A stretch of DNA of 64,000 bases from Chrysomallon squamiferum (GCA_012295275.1 CM022667.1:12586001-12650000), one strand, 5' to 3'; counted from the first letter of the stretch, positions 1 through 19,785 are shown. Program-made: numbers and translations. The notes: a model not told the origin generated them from the letters alone.

Positions 1-2311
<2,311 letters not shown>

Positions 2312-2399
2312 GGTGTTTTCTGGTTTTAAAAAATATATCAATTTGACGTTTTTCCCAGACTTCCCGGTAAAGAGGCAGTCGTTTTTAAAACCTATATCT

Positions 2400-2413
2400 G
2401 CGTCCATAGCAAC
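2400..2413 (-). promoter_or_regulatory. RFX X-box-like motif in tubulin copy A promoter
   Basis: GCGTCCATAGCAAC about 90 bp upstream of the ATG; perfect TAGCAAC half-site; identical in copy B. Confidence 0.45.
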
Positions 2414-4698
2414 CAAATCAAACAGTAACCAGTTTATCGACATGTTTGAACATATTGTGAAGAAGATATTTATTATATATCTCGGTGCAAACTGTCTTAG
2501 CTAAACGGGTAGATAGATACGTTTAAGGCCGTAAAGAGAAAATCATTTTTTTTACTCGCTGATATAGAAGAAAACGCTGTTTTAATCTTCACCGATTTTC
2601 TTAGTTTTTATTATTATTTTCTTTACTTTTGTGGTACATATGTCACTGAAGATTCCTATCCATGTATATATGTATGTATATAAATATAAATAAATAAATA
2701 AATTATACATATATCTACATATACAAACACATACACGCACACACACACACACACACACAACACAAATGTATTTAAATAAATCTGTACGAATACGTACGTG
2801 CCTTACGTTCTTTTTTTAAATTGGACTCTGAACTGAATGTGAAATAAGAAAACATTTCTTTGCGAAATATTCACAATTTCAGTCACAAAACAAACATTTA
2901 TTTCGTACTTGCCTGACGAGTTAATCGCTGTTTGTGATTATGTATATATACACGGAGTCGTACTAACAAGGAAGAAGTGTCAAATGCAAATTTATTTAAG
3001 TCCATACAAGCATAAAAGTTAAGTCTTTATAGAAACTGTTTGATTGTCACAGAAAAAAAAAATATTAAAAATTAAAAAGGAAAAGACTGAGAAATTAATG
3101 TTTTTCGAAAGTTCCTATTAACATTTTTACCTGTCAACTTTGTCGATTTCTTCTGAGCGACAGTCACTGTTCTAGGTTTTCGTAATAAAAAAAGTCCCCC
3201 AAAAATCAGTAGAATTGTGGTTTACCTAATGCTGAGTATATATAACCTTAAATATTCTAAATATATATATAATTTTATCTTAATTTATTAACCAGAGGTA
3301 AATACTGATGTTTATATAGTCTTATGTTATACTTTATCATGTAAATTACAGTAAGTAATATTCGTTATTATAGGTTTTAATTTTGTTTTAATTTTTTATT
3401 ATAAATGAACTTTGTCCACCGAGGGTTTGGGTCCATTGTATAGTTTTTGTGCTATATAAATAGTTTGTTGTTGTTGTTTTTAGGGCTTTGGGGGTTGTTA
3501 ATGGGGTATGCTTTTGGGGTATGTTTGTCAAAAGTGCCTCTCGTTAAAACTGCACTTTTCAAAAGTTAATTGTTCCTTTACATTCAGTTTAAAAGCATTC
3601 CTAATATTCCAATTATAATTATCAAAAAAACAACAACACACACACAAAAAACTTAATTGTCGATATTCACCTTCTTTTCACGGCAAGAAACATACCTGAT
3701 GTTTGTATTATTTTCACAAAGAACTTTTCAGCCTGCTTCGTGTCTTCAGCATCGGAAAATAACATTTATGCATCCGTATAAACTCACTGAGCCAAATTTA
3801 ATCCATTCATCAATATCCCATTAAGACGTTTTACGTAATGTTTCCATTATTTCTTTTTTGTTATGCCGATGGTTGTAGATTCTGAACGGAAAAAAAAAAT
3901 AAATAATAATTATAAATAGTAATAATAATAAATAAAAGTCGAATGAATTATTCACTTCCGGTTCCGTCAATGGCAGCTATTTACCTGAAATCATTATATC
4001 TTCTGTAAAACATATTTTTATTTTATAATTGCCTAATAAGTTTATTGCTTTTTGGGATTATGTAAACATGCTTGAAGTCGTCAAGGTGTCAAATATAAAT
4101 TCATTTAAGGCAATACAAGTATAAATGTGAAGTCTTTGTTCTGTTTTAATTGATTTAGAATAAGGAGAAAAATTAATGCTTAAAAGTCAGCTGTTAACAT
4201 TTCTACCTGTTACTTTATAAAATTTAATATCCAAATAGTGTCTGTTGAATGGTATTATCGGTTCAGTGTAGAAGTAGTTGTAACATTAGTTGTAGTAGTG
4301 GTGGTGGTGTATATAGGATAGGTATATATTGATATAGCGGGTTTGATAAATATCAAAAAATCATCTTAATAAAGATATATATAAATAAATAAATAAATAA
4401 AATATATATATATATCGATATGAATCGATTTGATACATTGATAACAATCGATCGTGAGATTCAGAAAACTGTTTGTTTTTGAATCAATAAGCGGATAATA
4501 CAGTAACTACAAAGTTTTGTTCAGATCCACTTGACGTAACAACAAATGGAGTCAACATTTTAAATATTTATTTACTTCAAAGAGCTGTAGTTATTGGTAT
4601 AAACATGTTACCTGACTCCTACATCGTTCTCATACAATAAAATAAAAAAAACCCACAAAAACAGTTCAGTTCTGGTTTACCTAACGCGCGATCGAAAC

Positions 4699-4723
4699 TA
4701 TAATAATAATAATAGTAATAATC

Positions 4724-4764
<41 letters not shown>

Positions 4765-4774
4765 TATAATAATA

Positions 4775-4838
<64 letters not shown>
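4699..4838. repeat. (AAT)n microsatellite
   Basis: Long, slightly imperfect ATA repeat; a shorter version is at ~17421-17480 in copy B. Confidence 0.95.
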
Positions 4839-4839
<1 letters not shown>

Positions 4840-5835
4840 TGGTTTACTGATACAACAGGAACATCTTAATTTACTTGAAAGTAATTTGAAAACAAAGACC
4901 ATTAGCTACGTTTGTATGTATATACGTATGTGTGTACGTGTGTATGAATGTATGTATGCATACAAGCATGTGTATGTGTGTGTATAAAACAATAATTAAT
5001 ATTCTTTTCTATTTACATAATATATGAGAATAGGTGAAAAATAACCAGCAACAATATAAAATATATAATTAAACATATTCTTATTATCAAATGTTATATT
5101 TGCTTTTTGTAAAAATTTTATTTTTAGAAAGGCAATGTTAAAATAGCGTGCCTGCCAGTAAACGACATTAACATGAACACAGTACTGATCCCAGTGAAAA
5201 GACCGTGTTCTATCTGTTAAAAACAAGATTTAAAAAAAAGAAATATATTTTAATAAGGTAGGTGGGTAAGACACGTGTTTTTCTTTTGCGGACAAAACAG
5301 GTGCAGTATTCAAATGATAAATTACGTTGCCTTTTGAAACTTGCCTTTCAAACACAGAGAGCTACCAATTCAAAATGATATCACTCACGCTACTGAAATT
5401 GCACACAAACAGCTTTTTAAATAATGGTAAAGAAGAAAGAACATTTTTTTAACGACCTGAATATAATGAAAAGTAGTACCTGTCAGAAACTGATCGATTT
5501 TGTTTGAATATTGAGTGTTTGTTTGGTTCATATATATATATATATATATAGACATACACATATATATGTATGTGTGTGTGTGTTTGTCGCTCTATCTGAC
5601 TGTATTGTACGTGAGTATGTATGTCTGTATGTATTTATGTACATGTAGGTATGTAGCGTTTGTGTGTCCCTCTTTGTATATGCATGTAATCTATGTTTGT
5701 GTATGTATCAAACATATACCAGTAAACAAATTTTCACTTCTTTCAGGCAGCCGAGGTTGACTACATCTACCAGATTCTTCATCATTTCTCGCATAAACGG
5801 TTCTCGTCTGGAATCTGTACCGTTTCGGTTTTTTC

Positions 5836-6021
5836 TGTGAGAGATGCACTGATATATTTAGAGTTACCGCCCTTGTGTGAGAGATGTTTACTGTTATATT
5901 TAGAGATACCGCCCTTGTGAGAGAGATGTTCACTAATATATTTAGAGTTACTCCCCTTGTGTGAGAAATATTCACTGACGTATTTAAATACCGCCCTTGT
6001 GTGAGAAATGTTCACTAATAT

Positions 6022-6024
<3 letters not shown>
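5836..6024. repeat. 42-bp minisatellite, about 4.5 units, followed by (GA)n at 6025-6093
   Basis: Unit approximately gagagatgttcactgatatatttagagttaccgcccttgtgt. Confidence 0.92.
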
Positions 6025-6094
<70 letters not shown>

Positions 6095-6242: not shown

Positions 6243-6704
6243 CATCATTATTGTTGTTGTTGTTTAAGTTCTTTACATTATTATTTTTTTGTCTTGGTTT
6301 CGGTCTTATTATCATCATCATCATTATTACTGTCGTTGTTGATGTTGCTAATAAAGGTATTTTTGTGTTTGTGTTGATGTTGATGTTGCTGTTCTACATA
6401 TTTGGTGGGTTTTTATTATCTAAATCATGCGATATATTTTGTTTCTGTTGTTGACAAAAAGTAATTTATAAAGAAAAAAAGAAAAACCAAAAATAATAAG
6501 AAGAATAATTTTATTTTTAAATTATTTTTAAAAACATTTATAAAATTAGAGCCACAAAATAAAAACAAAACAAAAATAAAGACGACAATAAATAAAATCC
6601 AAATTAATATTTTTTAATTTCATTTATTGATCGAATGCAGATAAAGCTATAAGTATTCTGGTGTCATTTTGAAAGTTAGTTTAATAAACTCAGTACACTT
6701 GAGC

Positions 6705-6780
<76 letters not shown>

Positions 6781-6811
6781 TATTTATTTTTTTATTTATT
6801 TATTATTGTTT

Positions 6812-7371
6812 TTACTGACAGGTTTTTATCTTATTATCTCGTTTACATCTTCTGTTATTACAGCAGTCGCTTCTGTTTTCGCATCGTTCATATCGCTTGG
6901 CACACTGAAAAATAAGCAAATAAACAAATAAATAAACAAACAAACAAAAATTAAAAAAATAAATAAATAAATAAATAATAAATAAATAAATATGCATATA
7001 AAATTAATACCAAAGAAATGAATCATAATCAATAAAATAAATGTAAATAAAAGTAATTAAATAAATATAAAAAGAAAACAGAGAGATATAAAATAATAAC
7101 AATAAGGAGAAGGAGAAGAATACCCCAAACATTTACAAAAATTATGATGATGGTTTTAACAATAATAATACAAGAGACAAATGACGTCGTCAGCGACAAC
7201 AACTACAACGACTACAACTACATTTACCTGTTTTCTCTGACATTTACGCCCTTTTCCGTATTTGTTTTTTTCACATTCCAGATTTCGACAGCATTCTAAA
7301 CCTCCGTTTCTCTTACATTTGTCCCCTATGTCTAAACACTGTAAATAATACTACAAATTTATATATATGTC

Positions 7372-7402
<31 letters not shown>

Positions 7403-7700
7403 ATAATTATTATTATTATCATTATTATTATTGTTATATAATAGATAGATATATATATGTGTGTGTTTGTGTGTGTATGTATGTGTGTGTATATATATAT
7501 ATATATAGTAATAATAGTAGGAGAAAAAGTAATAGTAGTAGTACTAGTGGCAGTTGTATTACTAGTAGTAGTAGTTGTGGCAGCTGTAGTACTACTAGTA
7601 GTAGTAGTAGTAGTAGTACTAGTAGTAGTTGTAGTAGTAGTAGTAGTAGTGGCAGTAGTACTAGTAGTAGTAGTAGTAGTACTAGTGGCAGTTGTAGTAC

Positions 7701-7772
<72 letters not shown>

Positions 7773-7808
7773 CAGTTGTAGTAGTAGTAGTAGTAGTACT
7801 AGTAGTAA

Positions 7809-7881
<73 letters not shown>

Positions 7882-7910
7882 TGTAGTACTAGTAGTAGTA
7901 GTAGTAATAC

Positions 7911-7946
<36 letters not shown>

Positions 7947-7958
7947 CAGTTGTAGTAC

Positions 7959-7991
<33 letters not shown>

Positions 7992-7995
7992 CAGT

Positions 7996-8032
<37 letters not shown>

Positions 8033-8047
8033 TGTAGTACTAGTAGC

Positions 8048-8081
<34 letters not shown>

Positions 8082-8332
8082 CTAGTGGCAGTTGTAGTAC
8101 TAATAGTAGTAGTAGTAGTAGTAGTACTAGTGGCGTTGTAGTACTAATAGTAGTAGTAGTAGTAATAGTAGTAGTAGTAGTAGTAACAGTGACATAAACT
8201 GAGAGGTGGGTAACAGAAAATAACTGTAACGTGATATTTGTTTCGTCTCACCATTGAAAGATGAGGTTCAATGTCCTGAGTGAAAACTGCGACAGCAAGA
8301 CACAACAAACCGATAATAATAGTAGTTTCCAT
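6812..8332 (-). CDS. Secreted double inhibitor-cystine-knot (bivalent knottin) peptide, 94 aa; coding exons 8332-8252, 7338-7228, 6904-6812
   Basis: Spliced translation METTIIIGLLCLAVAVFTQDIEPHLSM|CLDIGDKCKRNGGLECCRNLECEKNKYGKGRKCQRKQ|CAKRYERCENRSDCCNNRRCKRDNKIKTCQ*. Hydrophobic signal-peptide-like N-terminus and two C-C-CC-C-C frameworks. Both coding introns are phase 0 with canonical sites (ATG|gtgag...tttacag|TGT; CAG|gtaaat...ttttcag|TGT). Confidence 0.88.
7507..8187. repeat. Degenerate (AGT)n/(ACT)n tract in an intron of the knottin gene
   Basis: About 680 bp of AGT triplets with a recurring variant cassette (ggcagttgtagtact). Confidence 0.95.
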
Positions 8333-8915
8333 GTCGCTACCTGAAATTAAACAATATTATATTATATTATATTATATTATATTATATTATATTAATGAAC
8401 GTGATTTGATCGTATAATCCTTTAAACCCACCCGACGTTCTGTTTTGTTAAGGTGATGATTATTACATGTATAGACATTTTCTACAGAGACCAAGTCGGA
8501 AGTTGTTTCCCTCCGTTTGTGGAGAAATCTAAGTTTATTGTTGTGAGTTTCAAAAACAAATAACAATAAATTATACTGAGGTTTATTTCTGAGAAGAATT
8601 TACATCTGTTTAATGCGCGTAATGGAATATATTTCGGTGTAACCGATTTTAATTCTTATCGCAATCACAAACAAACAGCAGGCAACACTTTCAAAGTTAA
8701 ATGTTATGGTCTCCTGCAGACGATTTTTATTTATTAAATAGGGTTATGTATCCGAGGATAGTTAAAATGACCTTTAACCCCTGTAGCGTTCTTCGAGGCT
8801 TGGTAACAAAAATGTATAATACAACCATGAAGTTAAATTCATTTAATAATATAATGGCATTGAATTTTTTATATATCGTATATGTATTATTTTTTCCTTC
8901 TTCGTATTATAATAT

Positions 8916-8920
<5 letters not shown>

Positions 8921-9000
<80 letters not shown>
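8921..9000. repeat. (GA)n microsatellite
   Basis: Perfect GA repeat in the 5' UTR intron of the knottin gene. Confidence 0.97.
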
Positions 9001-9004
<4 letters not shown>

Positions 9005-9020
9005 AATAAGCTGTACTTAC

Positions 9021-9084
9021 ACTGAGACGTTGCTATGAAGTATCGATAACAGACAATTGAAAAATATTTCGCCTGCTTTTTATA
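9021..9084 (-). promoter_or_regulatory. TATA box and short non-coding first exon of the knottin gene
   Basis: Minus-strand TATAAAAAG at 9084-9076, Inr-like TCAATT at 9060-9055, donor gtaagt at 9020-9015. A matching acceptor ttaatttcag ends at 8341, 8 nt before the ATG. Confidence 0.7.
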
Positions 9085-9974: not shown

Positions 9975-13523
<3,549 letters not shown>

Positions 13524-13649
13524 GGTGTTTTCTAGGTTTTAAAAAAAAAAATAGATATCAATTTGACGTTTTTTTCTCAGTTCAGCTGCTCGGAGTTTGT
13601 CGCTGTTTGTTTCCCGGTAAACAGGCAGTCGTTTTTAAAACCTCTATCT

Positions 13650-13663
13650 GCGTCCATAGCAAC
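13650..13663 (-). promoter_or_regulatory. RFX X-box-like motif in tubulin copy B promoter
   Basis: GCGTCCATAGCAAC about 130 bp upstream of the ATG; consistent with a ciliary beta-tubulin. Confidence 0.5.
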
Positions 13664-14149
13664 CAAATCAAACAGTAACCAGTTTATCGACCAGTTTGAA
13701 TGGCTGCGTCACTTATTGTGAAGAAGATATTTATTATTCATCTCGGTGTAAACTGTCTTAGCTAAACGAGTAGATAGATACGTATAAGGCCGTAAAGAGA
13801 AAATATTTTGTTTTACTGGATCGCTGATATAGAGGAAAACGCTGTTTTAATCTTCAGCGATTTTCTTAGTTTTTTTTTTTTTTTTTCTTTACTTTTGTGG
13901 TACATATGTCACAGAAGATACCTATCCATGTATATAAGTATGTATATAAATATAATTAAATAAATAAATTATACATATATCTACATACACAACAACATAC
14001 ACGCACAGACACACACACACACAACACAAATGTATTTCAATAAATCTGTACGAATACGTACGTGCCTTACGTTCTTTTTTTAAATTGGACTCTGAACTGA
14101 ATGTGAAATAAGAAAACATTGATTTGTAAAATATTCACAATTTCAGTCA

Positions 14150-14623
14150 CAAAACAAACTTTTATTTCGTAGTTGCCTCACGAGTTTATCGCTATTTGTG
14201 ATTATGTAAACATGCACGGAGTACTACTATCAGGGAAGAGGTGTCAAATATAAATTTATTTAAGTCCATACAAGCATAAAAGTTAACTCCTTATAGAAAC
14301 TGTTTGATTGTCACAGAAAAAAAAAAAAAAAAAATTAAAAAAGAAAAGACTGAGAAATTAATGTTTTTCAAAAGTCCTGTTAACATTTTTACCTGTCAGT
14401 TTTATCGATTTCTTCTGAGCGACAGAACACTGTTCAATAATTAAATTGTGTTCTGCTGAAGTGTACCATTGTTTCAATGACTTCTGTTTTATCGCGTTTT
14501 CTTTTGATACACGTTAGAGTAATGTTTGGTAAATTGCGAGTGTGTTTCTTCGATAAGAAAAATAATTAAGAATCTGTCAGTACCGAAATGTAGTAATGAA
14601 ATGAAATGTGGAACATTAAAAAG

Positions 14624-14701
<78 letters not shown>

Positions 14702-14974
14702 AACACAGAGATAAATATAAAGATGGCTAACAGATGTATAAATGATGCATAAATAGAGAGACAAATAGATAGACAGTGACAGATAAAGGAAAAATCAGAG
14801 AGAGGGTGAGATGCACAAACAGGTAGGTAGATAATACATACATATACACATTATATATAGTAATGGAGAAAAAATAGAATAATAAATATGTATATAATTC
14901 GTGATCTATAGACGGATAAACAGAAGAAATAAAGATATAGATAGATAGATAGATAGATAGATAGATTGATTGAC

Positions 14975-15026
<52 letters not shown>

Positions 15027-16173
15027 ATTGGGATTGAGATAGAAAGATAAAAGACAGAGAGACAGTATTTAGAAAGACAAATTAAAGAAGCACAGACGAT
15101 GAAAATGAACGAATGAAATAAAACCGTAGGTATTCTTTACAAATGTTAGTGATATGCTTCAAAAAATATTTCGTTTTCTTTCTTCCAACTTACAGTAAAT
15201 TATAACCTACAATGGTTTTCAGAATCTGATGTGAAATTCCGACTAGAAGATGAAATAAAATTAAATACAAAATAATTTATAACATTAAAAGAAATAATCG
15301 ATCCGCTACAGTGACCACGACTGAACGTCAGAGAACTGTAAAAAGTTGTTCTTTAATCAATAAACAGAAAGACTACAAAGCTGCAGGTAAATTTGACGTA
15401 GGTGTCTGTGACTGCGTGGAGCCAACCATTTAAATATTTAATTACCACTTCAGTCAGAAACAGATATTGATATAGTAATTTTAACACGGATGGGTAGAGC
15501 AGTTAGATCTACATCATTCTAGTTTTTCGAAATAAAAACAAAATCAATGGAATTGTGGTTTACCTAATGCCTGTCTATTCTTTTACTGTCTCCACTGCAA
15601 GGGTATTTGCTATGCGGATGTGGTCTATGCTACTAATTATATTTTGGGCATTAAATCTCGTATAAACTTGCTGTTGCAAAACCAAGCCAATCTCGTACAA
15701 TATCCTCAGCGTTTTTTTGAAAAAGAAGTAGATTTCTTTGTGTGTACATACAGTTTCCATTACAACCTTAAATATTCCAAATATATATATATATATTATT
15801 TTATTTTATCTTATTTTATTAACCAGAGATAAATATTGATGTTTATATAGTCTTATGTTATTCTTTATCATGTAAATTACATTAATGTAATATTTGTTAT
15901 TATATTTTTTTTTTTTTTTTTTTTATTTGTTTTTTTTTTATTATAAATGAACTTTGTCCACCGAGTGTTTTTGTCCATTGTATAGTTATTGTCTTATATA
16001 AATATATTTTTGTTGTTCTTCTTAGGGCTTTTGTCATCGGACATTTTGTCCATTGGGGGTTGTTACAAGAACCGTAAATGTTTGTCAAAAGTGCCTCTGG
16101 TTAAAACTGCACTTTTCAAAAGTAAATTGTTCCTTTACATTCAGTTTAAAAGCATTCCTAACATTCCCCTTAT

Positions 16174-16209
<36 letters not shown>

Positions 16210-17433
16210 TTAATTGTTAATATTCACCTTCTTTTCACGGCAAGAAACATACCTGATGTTTGTATTATTTTCACAAAGAACGTGTCAGTCTGCTTCGTGT
16301 CTTCAGCATCGGAAAATAACATTTATGCATCCGTATAAACTCACTGAGCCAAATTTAATTCATTCACCAATATCCCATTAAGACATTTGACGTAATGTTT
16401 CCATTATTTCCTTTTTATTATGCCGATGGTTGTAGATTCTGAAAGATTTTTTTTTTTTTTTTTTTTTTATTAACAATAATAATAATAAATAAAAGTCGAA
16501 TGAATTATTCACTTCCGGTTCCGTCAATGACAGCTTTTACCTAAAATCATTATATCTTCTGTAAAACAAATTTTTATTTTGTAGTTGCCTAATAAGTTTA
16601 TTGCTTATGGATTGTGTAAACATGTTTAAAGTCGAACAAACAAGGAAAAGGTGTCAAATATAAATTTATTTAAGGCAATACAAGTATAAATGTGAAGTCT
16701 TTGTTCTGTTTTAACTGATTTAGAATAAGGAGAAAAATTAATGCTTTTAAAAAGTTACCTGTTAAGATTTTTACCTGTGACATTATAGTTTTTAATAACT
16801 AAATAGCGTTCTGTTGAATGGTGTTATCATTTCAGTGTAGAAGTAGTTGTAACATTAGTTGTCATAGTGGTGGTGGTGTTGTAGTAGTGGTTTTATTAAT
16901 AGTAATAGTAGTAGTAGTTGGTGTAGTAATTGTAATGTTAGTTTTCTTTCGTACAGGTTAAAGTTTGGTAAATTGTCCTTTTTTAATGTGTTTCAAATAA
17001 TTAAGAATTTTTAAGAGAGAGAGAGCAGGTAAATACATATATAGGATAGGTATATACTAATATAGCGGGTTTAAAAATATATAGAAATATATAAAAACTT
17101 GATAAAGATATATATATATGAATCGATTTGATACAGTGATAATGATCGATCGTTAGATTCACAGAACTGTAAAAATTTGTTTTTGAATCAATAAGCGGAT
17201 AATACAGTAACTACAAAGTTTTGTTCAGATCCACTTGTCGTAACGACAGCCGGAGACAAGCATTTAAATATTTAATTTCTTCAAAGAGCTGTAGTTATTG
17301 GTATAAACATGTTACCTGACTCCTACATCATTCTTGTTTTTTGTAAAAAAAAAAAAAAAAATAAAAACACAATAAAAATTTAAAAAAAACAACACAAGAA
17401 CAGTACAGTTCTGGTTTACCTATAATAATAACA

Positions 17434-17480
<47 letters not shown>

Positions 17481-17631
17481 TGGTTTACTGATACAACAGG
17501 AACATCTTAATTTATTTGAAAGTAATTTGAAAACAAATACCACTAGCTACGTATCTGCAGAATTTATGTATGTATGTTCGTACGAACGTCTGTATGTATA
17601 TACGTATGTGTGTATGAATGTATGTGTAATG

Positions 17632-17691
<60 letters not shown>

Positions 17692-18254
17692 AATAATTAT
17701 TTATTTTTCTATCTACATAATATATCAGAGTAGGTACAAAAATATCTTAGTGCAAATGGGTGAAAAATAACCAACAACAATATAAAACATATAATTAAAC
17801 ATATTCTTATTATCAAAAGTTATATTTGCTTTTTTTATTTTTTTATTTTTAGAAAGGCAATGTTAAAATAGCGTACAAGAAGGCATTAACATGAACACAA
17901 TACAGAACCCAGTGAAAAGACCGTGTTCTCTGTGTTAAAATCAAGATTTAAAAAAAAAAACGTATATATTAATAAGTCAGGTGGGTAAGACACGTGTTTT
18001 TCTTTTCTACAGGTGCAGTATTCAAATGATAAATTACGTTGCCTTTTGAAACTTGCCTCTCAAACACAAAGAGCTACCAATTTAAAATGTTATCACTCAT
18101 GCCACTGAAATCTCACACAAACAGGTTTTTAAAACTGAGTAAATAATGGTGAAGAAGAAAAAAACAATTTTTTTTAACGATCTGAATGTAATGTAAAGTA
18201 GTACCTGTCAGAAACTGATCGATTTTGTTTCAGTATTGAGTGTTTGTTTAGTTC

Positions 18255-18302
<48 letters not shown>

Positions 18303-18829
18303 GACATATCTATGTATGTGTGTGTGTACATGTTTGTCGTTCTAACTGACTTTATTGTACGTGAGTTTGTATGTGTGTTTGTATGTATGTACATGTAGGT
18401 ATGTTGCCTTTTTTTGTGTAATATATGTTTGTATATATCAAACATATACCGGTAAACAAATGTTTGTTTTTTCTTCCAAAATAATCAAACAGGTAATTTG
18501 TAATAATCGTTCCCTGTGTAAAGTTTTTTTATCAAAAACATTCTTCTAATGGACACAAACTCACATTATTAAAAATAATCGTTCCCTCTCTTCTCTCTTT
18601 TTTTTTATCATTTCTTTTTATCACTTTCACATTCTAATTTATTAAGATTTCATATTCGTTTGAAGATTAATTTCCATTCCTCTTAATTGCAGATTCTGCA
18701 ATACTCAGAGTTACCCCTCCGTAATTACTTCCCCTACTCTCGAAATGTACGGAATTTCCAAATAAAGCATCTGTTAATATTTATCTAATTTGCTCCATCT
18801 TATTATTATTATTAATTTATTTATTATTT

Positions 18830-18860
<31 letters not shown>

Positions 18861-18869
18861 TTATTATTC

Positions 18870-18912
<43 letters not shown>

Positions 18913-18935
18913 AATTATTAATTATTAATTAAATT

Positions 18936-18972
<37 letters not shown>

Positions 18973-19230
18973 TTTTTTTTTTACTTTTTTTATCCACTTG
19001 ATATAAATTAACTATTATAAAATTGAAAAAACACTCAATAAACTACAAGCAATAATTCCATTAGAATTTTAGAAAACAAATTAATTATGTGAAATATTCC
19101 AGGCTTTTATGTGACCGTTTTATCTTCAGGTAGGAATCCATTTCACTGCGTCTAATGACAACCCGGCTGCCGAGGTTGTCTGCATCTACCAGACTCTTCA
19201 TCATTTCGCGAATATACGGTTCTCGTCTGG
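14150..19230 (-). pseudogene. Degraded multi-exon gene relic with internal repeats (second, more deleted copy at ~2890-5830)
   Basis: Exon-like blocks with AG/GT borders (16438-16253, 15766-15564) and protein-like translations broken by stops and frameshifts. Old internal duplication: 14150-14420 resembles 16560-16800, and 15290-15560 resembles 17140-17420. Confidence 0.45.
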
Positions 19231-19270
19231 AATCTGTACAGTTTGTTTTTCTTCTATGTGTTTTATTCTA

Positions 19271-19785
19271 TGAGAGAGGTGTTCACTGATATATTTAGAG
19301 TTACTGCCCTTGTGTGAGAGATGTTCACTGATATATTTAGTTACTGCTCTTGTGAGAGATGTTCACTAATGTGTTTAGAGTTACTCCCCTTGTGTGAGAG
19401 ATGTTCACTGATATATTTAGAGATACCGCCCTTGCGTGAGAGATGTTCACTGATATATTTAGAGATACCGCCCTTGTGTGAGAGATGTTCACTGATATAT
19501 TTAGTTACTGCTCTCGTGAGAGATGTTCACTGCTATATTTAGTTACTGCCCTTGTGTGAGAGATGTTCACTAATGTGTTTAGAGTTACTCCCCTTGTGTG
19601 AGAGGTGTTCACTGCTATATTTAGTTATCACCTTGTGTGAGAGATGTTCACTGATATATTTAGTTATCACCTTGTTAGAGGTGTTCACTGCACCTTGTGT
19701 GAGAGATGTTCACTGATATATTTAGTTACTGCCCTTGTGTGAGAGATGTTCACTGATATATTTAGAGTTACCGCCCTTGTGTGAG
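19271..19785. repeat. 40-42-bp minisatellite, about 12 units
   Basis: Tandem gagagatgttcactgatatatttag(ag)ttactgcccttgtgt units. Confidence 0.95.

Follow-up and report, generated by a model that had tools for sequence, protein, structure and literature searches.

Does the interval between two β-tubulin genes of Chrysomallon squamiferum, the scaly-foot snail, hold a gene for a secreted peptide built from two inhibitor cystine knots (ICKs, or knottins), and what might such a peptide do in a non-predatory vent snail? The interval lies in a stretch of 64,000 nucleotides (GCA_012295275.1 CM022667.1:12586001-12650000; hereafter the window, with positions counted from its first letter), in which an earlier note had placed a complete minus-strand gene at 6812-9084. 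Judged from sequence, the gene is real. It lies among housekeeping genes, is predicted to encode a secreted, cationic peptide of two knottins, and is a previously uncharacterized, likely peltospirid gene with an unusual exon-per-knot structure. Its features, with the evidence for each, are as follows.

9078-9084, minus strand: TATA-like box, putative promoter (sequence, position only)
9021-9058, minus strand: putative non-coding exon 1, start approximate (no ATG; 3' end is a GTRAG donor)
8341-9020, minus strand: putative intron 1, 680 nt, with a CT microsatellite (GT...AG ends)
8252-8340, minus strand: exon 2, with 8 nt of untranslated region (UTR), the ATG at 8332 and 27 codons (hydropathy, homologue match)
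7339-8251, minus strand: intron 2, 913 nt, phase 0, mainly a TAC-type microsatellite (sequence)
7228-7338, minus strand: exon 3, 37 codons, knot 1 (C6C7CC4C10C) plus a 4-residue linker (homologue, AlphaFold, variant from sequencing run X20)
6905-7227, minus strand: intron 3, 323 nt, phase 0, between both knots (GT...AG ends)
6812-6904, minus strand: coding part of exon 4, 30 codons plus stop, knot 2 (C6C5CC4C8C) (homologue, Pfam)
6623-6811, minus strand: 3' UTR region with several AATAAA motifs at 6804-6784, 6711 and 6628 (motif search)

The coding exons (8332-8252, 7338-7228 and 6904-6812) sum to 94 codons plus a stop. Each lies behind a pyrimidine tract and AG, exons 2 and 3 end at GT donors, and every coding junction is in phase 0. 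Exon 2 encodes a predicted signal peptide of ~18 residues, with a hydrophobic core reaching a 9-residue Kyte-Doolittle mean of 3.2, followed by a 9-residue leader lacking a dibasic site. Exons 3 and 4 each start exactly at the codon of their first Cys, exon 3 being symmetric (phase 0-0). Re-reading and recounting confirm the exon coordinates, splice sites and cysteine spacings of the earlier note, its 4-residue linker and its 21 Lys/Arg versus 9 Asp/Glu over the two knot exons, which together carry 12 cysteines. Its claim of completeness holds for the coding exons; the TATA box and exon 1, placed from position alone, are only plausible, with TATAWAW occurring 4.2 times per kb on the minus strand of this AT-rich window and the GTRAG donor at 9020 being the sole one between 9708 and 8341. 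AATAAA is likewise common locally (4.7 per kb). A loose C-C-CC-C-C pattern, searched in six frames over the whole window, matches twice, at exons 3 and 4, versus a mean of 0.01 matches in 100 locally shuffled windows, none of which contains two. The window holds no second copy of the knot gene. Within intron 2, the TAC-type microsatellite at 7530-8200 gives rise to four spurious open frames of 186-298 codons.

The exon chain finds its counterpart in another peltospirid vent snail, Gigantopelta aegis. Queried with knot 1, a full HMMER search returns a single match (E 4e-6) among 1.84 billion representative proteins, P0004 (XP_041375171.1), a predicted 96-residue "uncharacterized protein SJCHGC09800-like". 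The three coding exons align with it end to end and in order, with 50 identities over 91 aligned residues: exon 2 covers residues 1-27 (11/27 identical), exon 3 residues 28-62 (23/35) and exon 4 residues 68-96 (16/29). For each exon, 0 of 2,000 shuffles reach the observed score, and the same holds for both knot pairs when the cysteines are kept fixed. This ordered match to an independently predicted protein supports the exon chain. The homologue possesses a signal peptide, its first Cys at residue 28, spacings of 6-7-0-4-10 and 6-5-0-4, and neither Trp nor Phe; its last loop has 7 residues versus 8 here. Word-based protein searches, which depend on shared 5-mers and perform poorly with peptides of this kind, give P0004 alone and nothing longer. 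The peptide had been called lineage-specific, which agrees with G. aegis holding the only sequence homologue found; against this, the tapeworm UPF0506 layout is near-identical and tandem knottins occur in Mytilus.

Two other candidates were set aside. The metagenome match L001:1158-1247, the one of 117 candidate stretches that passed, matches knot 2 out of frame and by chance, within a bacterial gene. G. aegis ctg223-3.1-1, labeled UPF0506, has other gene surroundings and a Pomacea partner score of 150, and is probably a different gene; its entry in the supplement of PMC7895826 suggests that gastropods may hold further UPF0506-like genes. Among the titles and abstract openings listed from a partial library, a literature search gave no earlier description of the double-knot peptide.

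Natural variation in knot 1 provides evidence on the reading frame. Sequencing run X20 yields unspliced contigs over exon 3, the main one spanning both splice sites, with a variant that differs at 8 of 111 exon bases and 0 of 35 flanking bases. Seven codons are changed, all by replacement, without hitting a Cys or creating a stop. At four of the seven, the variant residue is that of G. aegis (P 5e-5 with random codons and 4e-4 with the codons at hand), which supports the reading frame. Seven of the eight base differences fall within one 30-nt Cys5-Cys6 loop (scan-corrected P 0.007, post hoc), which is also the least conserved loop of knot 1 versus G. aegis (4/10). The pattern hints at fast change in one surface loop, as read from a single sequence pair that may represent an allele or a paralogue. 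Two additional short contigs from this run cover the beginning of exon 3 (window 7321-7360), perhaps reflecting more than one allele or copy. No contig over exon 3 and its flanks came from the RNA runs X21 and X22 or from run X1, a negative that can be false. A sequencing-run search returned 23 runs with matches, none sharing half of the words; most of the small shares probably come from the microsatellites, and these were not used.

These data bear on whether the gene could be decayed, untranscribed or a chance reading of AT-rich DNA. Spliced reads or contigs were not obtained, and the homologue is itself a prediction; nevertheless the frames are open, no splice site and none of the 12 cysteines is lost, the three-exon order recurs in that independent prediction, the pattern is expected by chance 0.01 times per window, and the X20 variant sites spare cysteines and stops and follow homologue residues. 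We consider such an origin very improbable.

Both knot exons contain six cysteines in C-C-CC-C-C order with usual knottin loop lengths, a first loop (loop a) of 6 and adjacent Cys3-Cys4 being the commonest knottin forms (PMC2238874). AlphaFold models knot 1 alone with a predicted local distance difference test (pLDDT) score of 86 and a C-terminal β-hairpin. The thresholds for a fold match were Foldseek E <= 0.001 and VIA Z 5. Against 48,161 chains, the 10 best VIA matches of the knot 1 model have Z 3.9-4.3 and root-mean-square deviation (rmsd) 1.8-2.5 over 33-36 aligned residues. Nine of these ten we take to be knottins, and the tenth is an IGFBP fragment. For one of the nine, 6xyh, knottin status is given in PMC9866706. 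The best Foldseek match of knot 1 has E 0.28 and a template-modeling (TM) score of 0.70. The full homologue model (pLDDT 73, predicted TM score 0.39) has two double knots as its top Foldseek matches, Xt3a (E 0.046) and DkTx (E 0.27), and its halves match single knottins separately. A knottin-like fold for knot 1 and separately matching homologue halves point towards the expected two knots, with scores below the thresholds. In Pfam, both knots score highest with Toxin_12, though below its cut-off of 21 bits (19.5 and 18.8 bits; E 0.0025 for knot 2); Anophelin, Dickkopf_N and Conotoxin_I2 all fall far below theirs. Taken as models, these data make a knottin fold likely.

The same matches raise the possibility of a deterrent or anti-parasite toxin whose basic face would act on an animal ion channel or receptor (pore-blocking, calcin-like), with two knots giving long-lasting binding. 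Beyond Toxin_12 and the top fold match to Xt3a, whose linker also has 4 residues, the best sequence matches in the PDB are the anemone nicotinic acetylcholine receptor inhibitors Ms11a (E 0.16 and 0.46), likewise with a long Cys5-Cys6 loop (PMC9866706), and the mussel knottin CRP-I H1 is somewhat toxic to eukaryotes (PMC10138031). These matches are, however, non-significant (phmmer against the PDB gives nothing under E 0.1, with Xt3a at 8.9), and PDB knottins are mostly toxins. Peltospirids graze, filter or deposit feed, or are fed by symbionts (PMC7895826), the window offers no venom context, and the aromatic patch of gating modifiers is absent. A channel or receptor toxin is accordingly unlikely.

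From residue 19, the peptide comprises 76 residues with a net charge of +10, 12 Cys, 2 Tyr, 0 Trp and 0 Phe. The homologue has a net charge of +9 and an identical aromatic count, so that positive charge is retained over ~47% divergence. Spider gating modifiers that align weakly to knot 2 carry an aromatic patch in loop 1, which is absent in this peptide. With a net charge of +10, neither Trp nor Phe and no such patch, a DkTx-like lipid-anchored mechanism, and with it a DkTx-type gating modifier, is unlikely from the sequence; binding to anionic surfaces through charge is the likelier mode. The analogy to DkTx and Hi1a, offered earlier as a source of bivalent avidity, is not supported as a mechanism; moreover, the RK pair in the linker could be cut.

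Such a cut, or skipping of exon 3, would make the gene a two-peptide precursor whose single knots act separately, including as trypsin-like protease inhibitors. The phase 0-0 boundaries of exon 3 would preserve the frame on skipping, the linker is conserved neither in length nor in charge (4 residues, basic, here; 7, acidic, in G. aegis), and a knottin trypsin inhibitor is among the knot 1 fold matches. For Mytilus, comparable processing was left possible by the authors (PMC10138031). The G. aegis linker, however, lacks a dibasic pair. Six dibasic pairs occur over the two knot exons, most of them within knots, so that one more in the linker is expected by composition, and KR or RR would be stronger convertase sites than RK. 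Partly compatible with other readings, a two-peptide precursor seems rather improbable.

As the hairpin loop is variable and the host non-predatory, we rank first, tentatively and by analogy, a microbe-binding, protease-resistant, cationic defence peptide. The signal peptide would be removed near residue 18, and the two knots are predicted to fold separately. Their basic faces may hold anionic targets (lipopolysaccharide, acidic lipids, glycans) by charge, the variable hairpin loop between Cys5 and Cys6 would set specificity, and the joining of two knots could raise avidity. Mytilus CRP-I knottins, cationic, hypervariable and non-venom, are interpreted as defence peptides (PMC10138031, PMC4558851), and tachystatins are antimicrobial knottins (PMC2853521), providing precedents. 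Several points weigh against this role. CRP-I H1, the best-studied molluscan analogue, has no antibacterial effect on four species at concentrations reaching 32 uM, does not inhibit proteases and is just modestly toxic to eukaryotic cells (PMC10138031). Neither the 8/8 replacement changes (P 0.20) nor the exon-versus-flank difference (P 0.20) is significant, and no fold score reaches the thresholds, with IGFBP and Dickkopf fragments scoring alike. Killing peptides usually require a hydrophobic face, which this peptide lacks. Finally, one copy is present in the window and one homologue in the database, whereas defence peptide families are often expanded.

How the two-knot layout arose can be narrowed by comparing knots. 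Between orthologues the knots are far more alike (23/37 and 16/29 identical) than knot 1 is to knot 2 within a protein (9/30 and 12/29), indicating that both knots were present before the lineage separated from G. aegis. They would derive from early duplication of an exon, or from exon capture, ahead of that split. Duplication is countered by weak similarity between knot 1 and knot 2 beyond the cysteines: 391 of 2,000 shuffles reach it for the window pair and 7 of 2,000 for the G. aegis pair, with 929 of 1,000 for the DNA of the knot exons. Exon duplication is thus unproven, and capture of an unrelated knot exon is possible. Among insect defensin-like peptides, repeats with one exon per domain are known (PMC4558851, PMC2853521), and a 2026 spider study describes intron-driven repeat formation as unreported for bivalent toxins (PMC13172734). 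The exon-per-domain route itself is ordinary; the new point, among the cases compared, is its use for a double knot, with one knot per phase-0 exon.

A possible site of action comes from G. aegis, in which an unannotated gene, ctg19-0.3-1, sits at the start of ctg19 on the PIGN/CYBA side, as the knot gene does here (PMC7895826). Supplementary file 7 of that paper gives it a log2 fold change of 3.13 (~9-fold) at a false discovery rate of 0.005. File order and header suggest that this file lists genes with high expression in the oesophageal gland, which houses the symbionts; the list comprises 1782 of 21,438 G. aegis genes (8%; PMC7895826). We regard ctg19-0.3-1 as a possible, though doubtful, orthologue of the double-knot gene. 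Against orthology, bins 0-3 of ctg19 hold no tubulin, the tubulins being on ctg2684, elsewhere in the synteny table (PMC7895826), and the matching block in the scaly-foot gland tables comprises 7 listed genes, none a peptide gene, an absence of little weight because C18orf21 is missing too (PMC7142155). Only PIGN and CYBA in this block are gland-enriched, 4.2- and 2.5-fold, in the oesophageal gland (PMC7142155). The tubulin contig ctg2684 has 3 genes listed, none small and unannotated (PMC7895826). If ctg19-0.3-1 were the orthologue, on which this reading rests, a double knot built by exon duplication and secreted in the oesophageal gland might control intracellular symbionts; we find this more specific proposal, drawn by analogy, improbable. 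The analogues are legume nodule-specific cysteine-rich (NCR) and aphid bacteriocyte-specific cysteine-rich (BCR) peptides.

The surroundings of the gene are those of a housekeeping locus. Both neighbors are β-tubulins, as claimed, and a scan of 74 frames identifies CYBA (weak match), PIGN, DUF4674/C18orf21, DUF4461/TCAIM and anillin within 23203-64000, in agreement with the earlier view that the neighbors show no signs of venom. All five are listed on G. aegis ctg19 in the supplement of PMC7895826, and their occurrence together was counted in favor of gene reality. The scaly-foot snail gene list places tubulin, tubulin, CYBA, PIGN, TCAIM and anillin in consecutive rows (PMC7142155). This list has no gene between the tubulins, a weak absence since C18orf21 is also missing (PMC7142155).

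The tubulins themselves arose within a tandem duplication (1-6030 versus 10794-19785; 75-87% identical) that spans tubulin and several kb upstream and excludes the knot gene. Of the minus-strand β-tubulins at 1-2310 and 9975-13523, the downstream copy is a diverged duplicate, with 7 amino-acid and 7 synonymous changes over 118 codons of one exon and 5 amino-acid changes over 35 codons of a second, with some changes hitting motifs that normally do not vary. A scaly-foot gene listed as "tubulin beta 2", which occupies the corresponding position in the gene order, is 8.3-fold enriched in scale tissue (PMC7142155). A minisatellite with ~40-bp units marks the far end of both duplicated blocks (5746-6030 and 19165-19785).

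Within molluscs, a 2015 survey recorded C-C-CC-C-C peptides only from mussels and Conoidea (PMC4558851), to which Vexillum was later added (PMC9363990); a non-predatory vent snail adds a further lineage. The gene also represents a natural tandem knottin with one knot per symmetric exon, a route expected and not found in spider bivalent toxins or mussel multi-knottins, which renders the exon-duplication model testable. Were the peptide made in the symbiont organ, it would be a candidate host effector restraining the bacteria of chemosymbiotic snails; were symbiont control true, it would be a molluscan counterpart of NCR and BCR peptides and the first tandem knottin whose knots are separated by an intron. 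Double knottins are, in addition, sought as stable bivalent scaffolds.

Among known systems, flatworm UPF0506 (Pfam PF11703; KNOTTIN "Trematoda" family) comes nearest in layout, being secreted with 12 cysteines in two C-C-CC-C-C arrays. The tapeworm protein A0A183TDP7 of Schistocephalus is secreted and has the motif C6C7CC4C9C-2-C6C5CC3C4C (PMC8400842). Seven of its 11 spacings are identical here, including second loops of 7 then 5; the seven also take in two CC pairs and two loops of the common length of 6. Its linker is shorter (2), as are its last loops. Of the named Atlas clusters, UPF0506 lies nearest to the homologue in features (score 0.89, with 174 shared) as well as in structure (TM 0.49/0.54), at scores below the Atlas thresholds. 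This likeness underlies the reading of an endogenous secreted ligand or matrix protein (signaling, gamete recognition, mucus, biomineral) without a defence role, perhaps an old spiralian double knottin related to UPF0506. A schistosome upf0506 gene is a parenchyma marker (bioRxiv 2020.02.03.932004), conserved non-venom ICK genes are retained in spiders (PMC13172734), agouti-family knots occur among the fold matches, and the gene is single-copy in the window. Yet PF11703 matches neither the exons (E <= 1) nor the full-length homologue (E <= 10), and no flatworm protein appears among the knot 1 HMMER or word-based search matches. Replacement-only variation in one loop suits conflict better than housekeeping. 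Gamete proteins likewise evolve by replacement changes. We consider an endogenous ligand or matrix protein possible, if on the unlikely side. UPF0506 membership fails on Pfam, and kinship may still hold; UPF0506 has been reported from Platyhelminthes alone (PMC8400842), and if the two are related, this "flatworm-only" family would be older and wider.

Mytilus mCRP-I offers the closest molluscan parallel: a non-venom mollusc with secreted, cationic, tandem predicted knottins, four exons of which the first is non-coding, and a hypervariable mature part. It carries 2-4 knots, all in exon 4 (PMC10138031, PMC4558851). Its pro-region ends in KR/RR, whereas exon 2 here lacks a dibasic pair; its introns are of phase 1 and 2 with the knots in the last exon, in contrast to phase 0 and one knot per exon; its array, C(3-6)C(1-7)CC(3-4)C(3-5)C, ends in a loop of 3-5 rather than 10 and 8; and it has about 50 paralogues versus one copy in the window. 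Membership in CRP-I fails on pro-region, intron phases and loop length.

The bivalent venom ICK toxins (DkTx, Hi1a/Hc1a, Xt3a, CpTx1) share two ICK arrays and a short linker, of 4 residues in Xt3a, 6 in Hi1a and 12 in DkTx (PMC9950431). In Hc1a both knots lie on one exon through intra-exon duplication (PMC13172734), whereas an intron separates the knots here, in a window with no venom context. Tachystatins of horseshoe crabs share a cationic C-C-CC-C-C knot and are among the knot 1 fold matches (Z 3.4 and 2.6). They are amphipathic and aromatic-rich single knots, in contrast to two knots with 2 Tyr in 76 residues. The aromatic, hydrophobic patch of gating modifiers and tachystatin-type chitin binders is absent both here and in the homologue. 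Neogastropod framework VI/VII peptides (O-superfamily conotoxins, vexitoxins) are gastropod products with an identical cysteine framework (PMC9363990), and conotoxin GXIA overlays homologue knot 2 with rmsd 0.7 over 25 residues (Z 2.0). Their mature domain is single-copy and they are venom-gland products of predators; no Conotoxin Pfam match to the homologue scores better than E 6.5. Non-venom precedents for the two-knot architecture, together with a homologue already recorded as a prediction, count against novelty, and tandem knots, earlier described as uncommon, are known from flatworm UPF0506 and from mussel multi-knottins. What sets the scaly-foot gene apart from spider Hc1a and mussel mCRP-I is its exon-per-knot structure.

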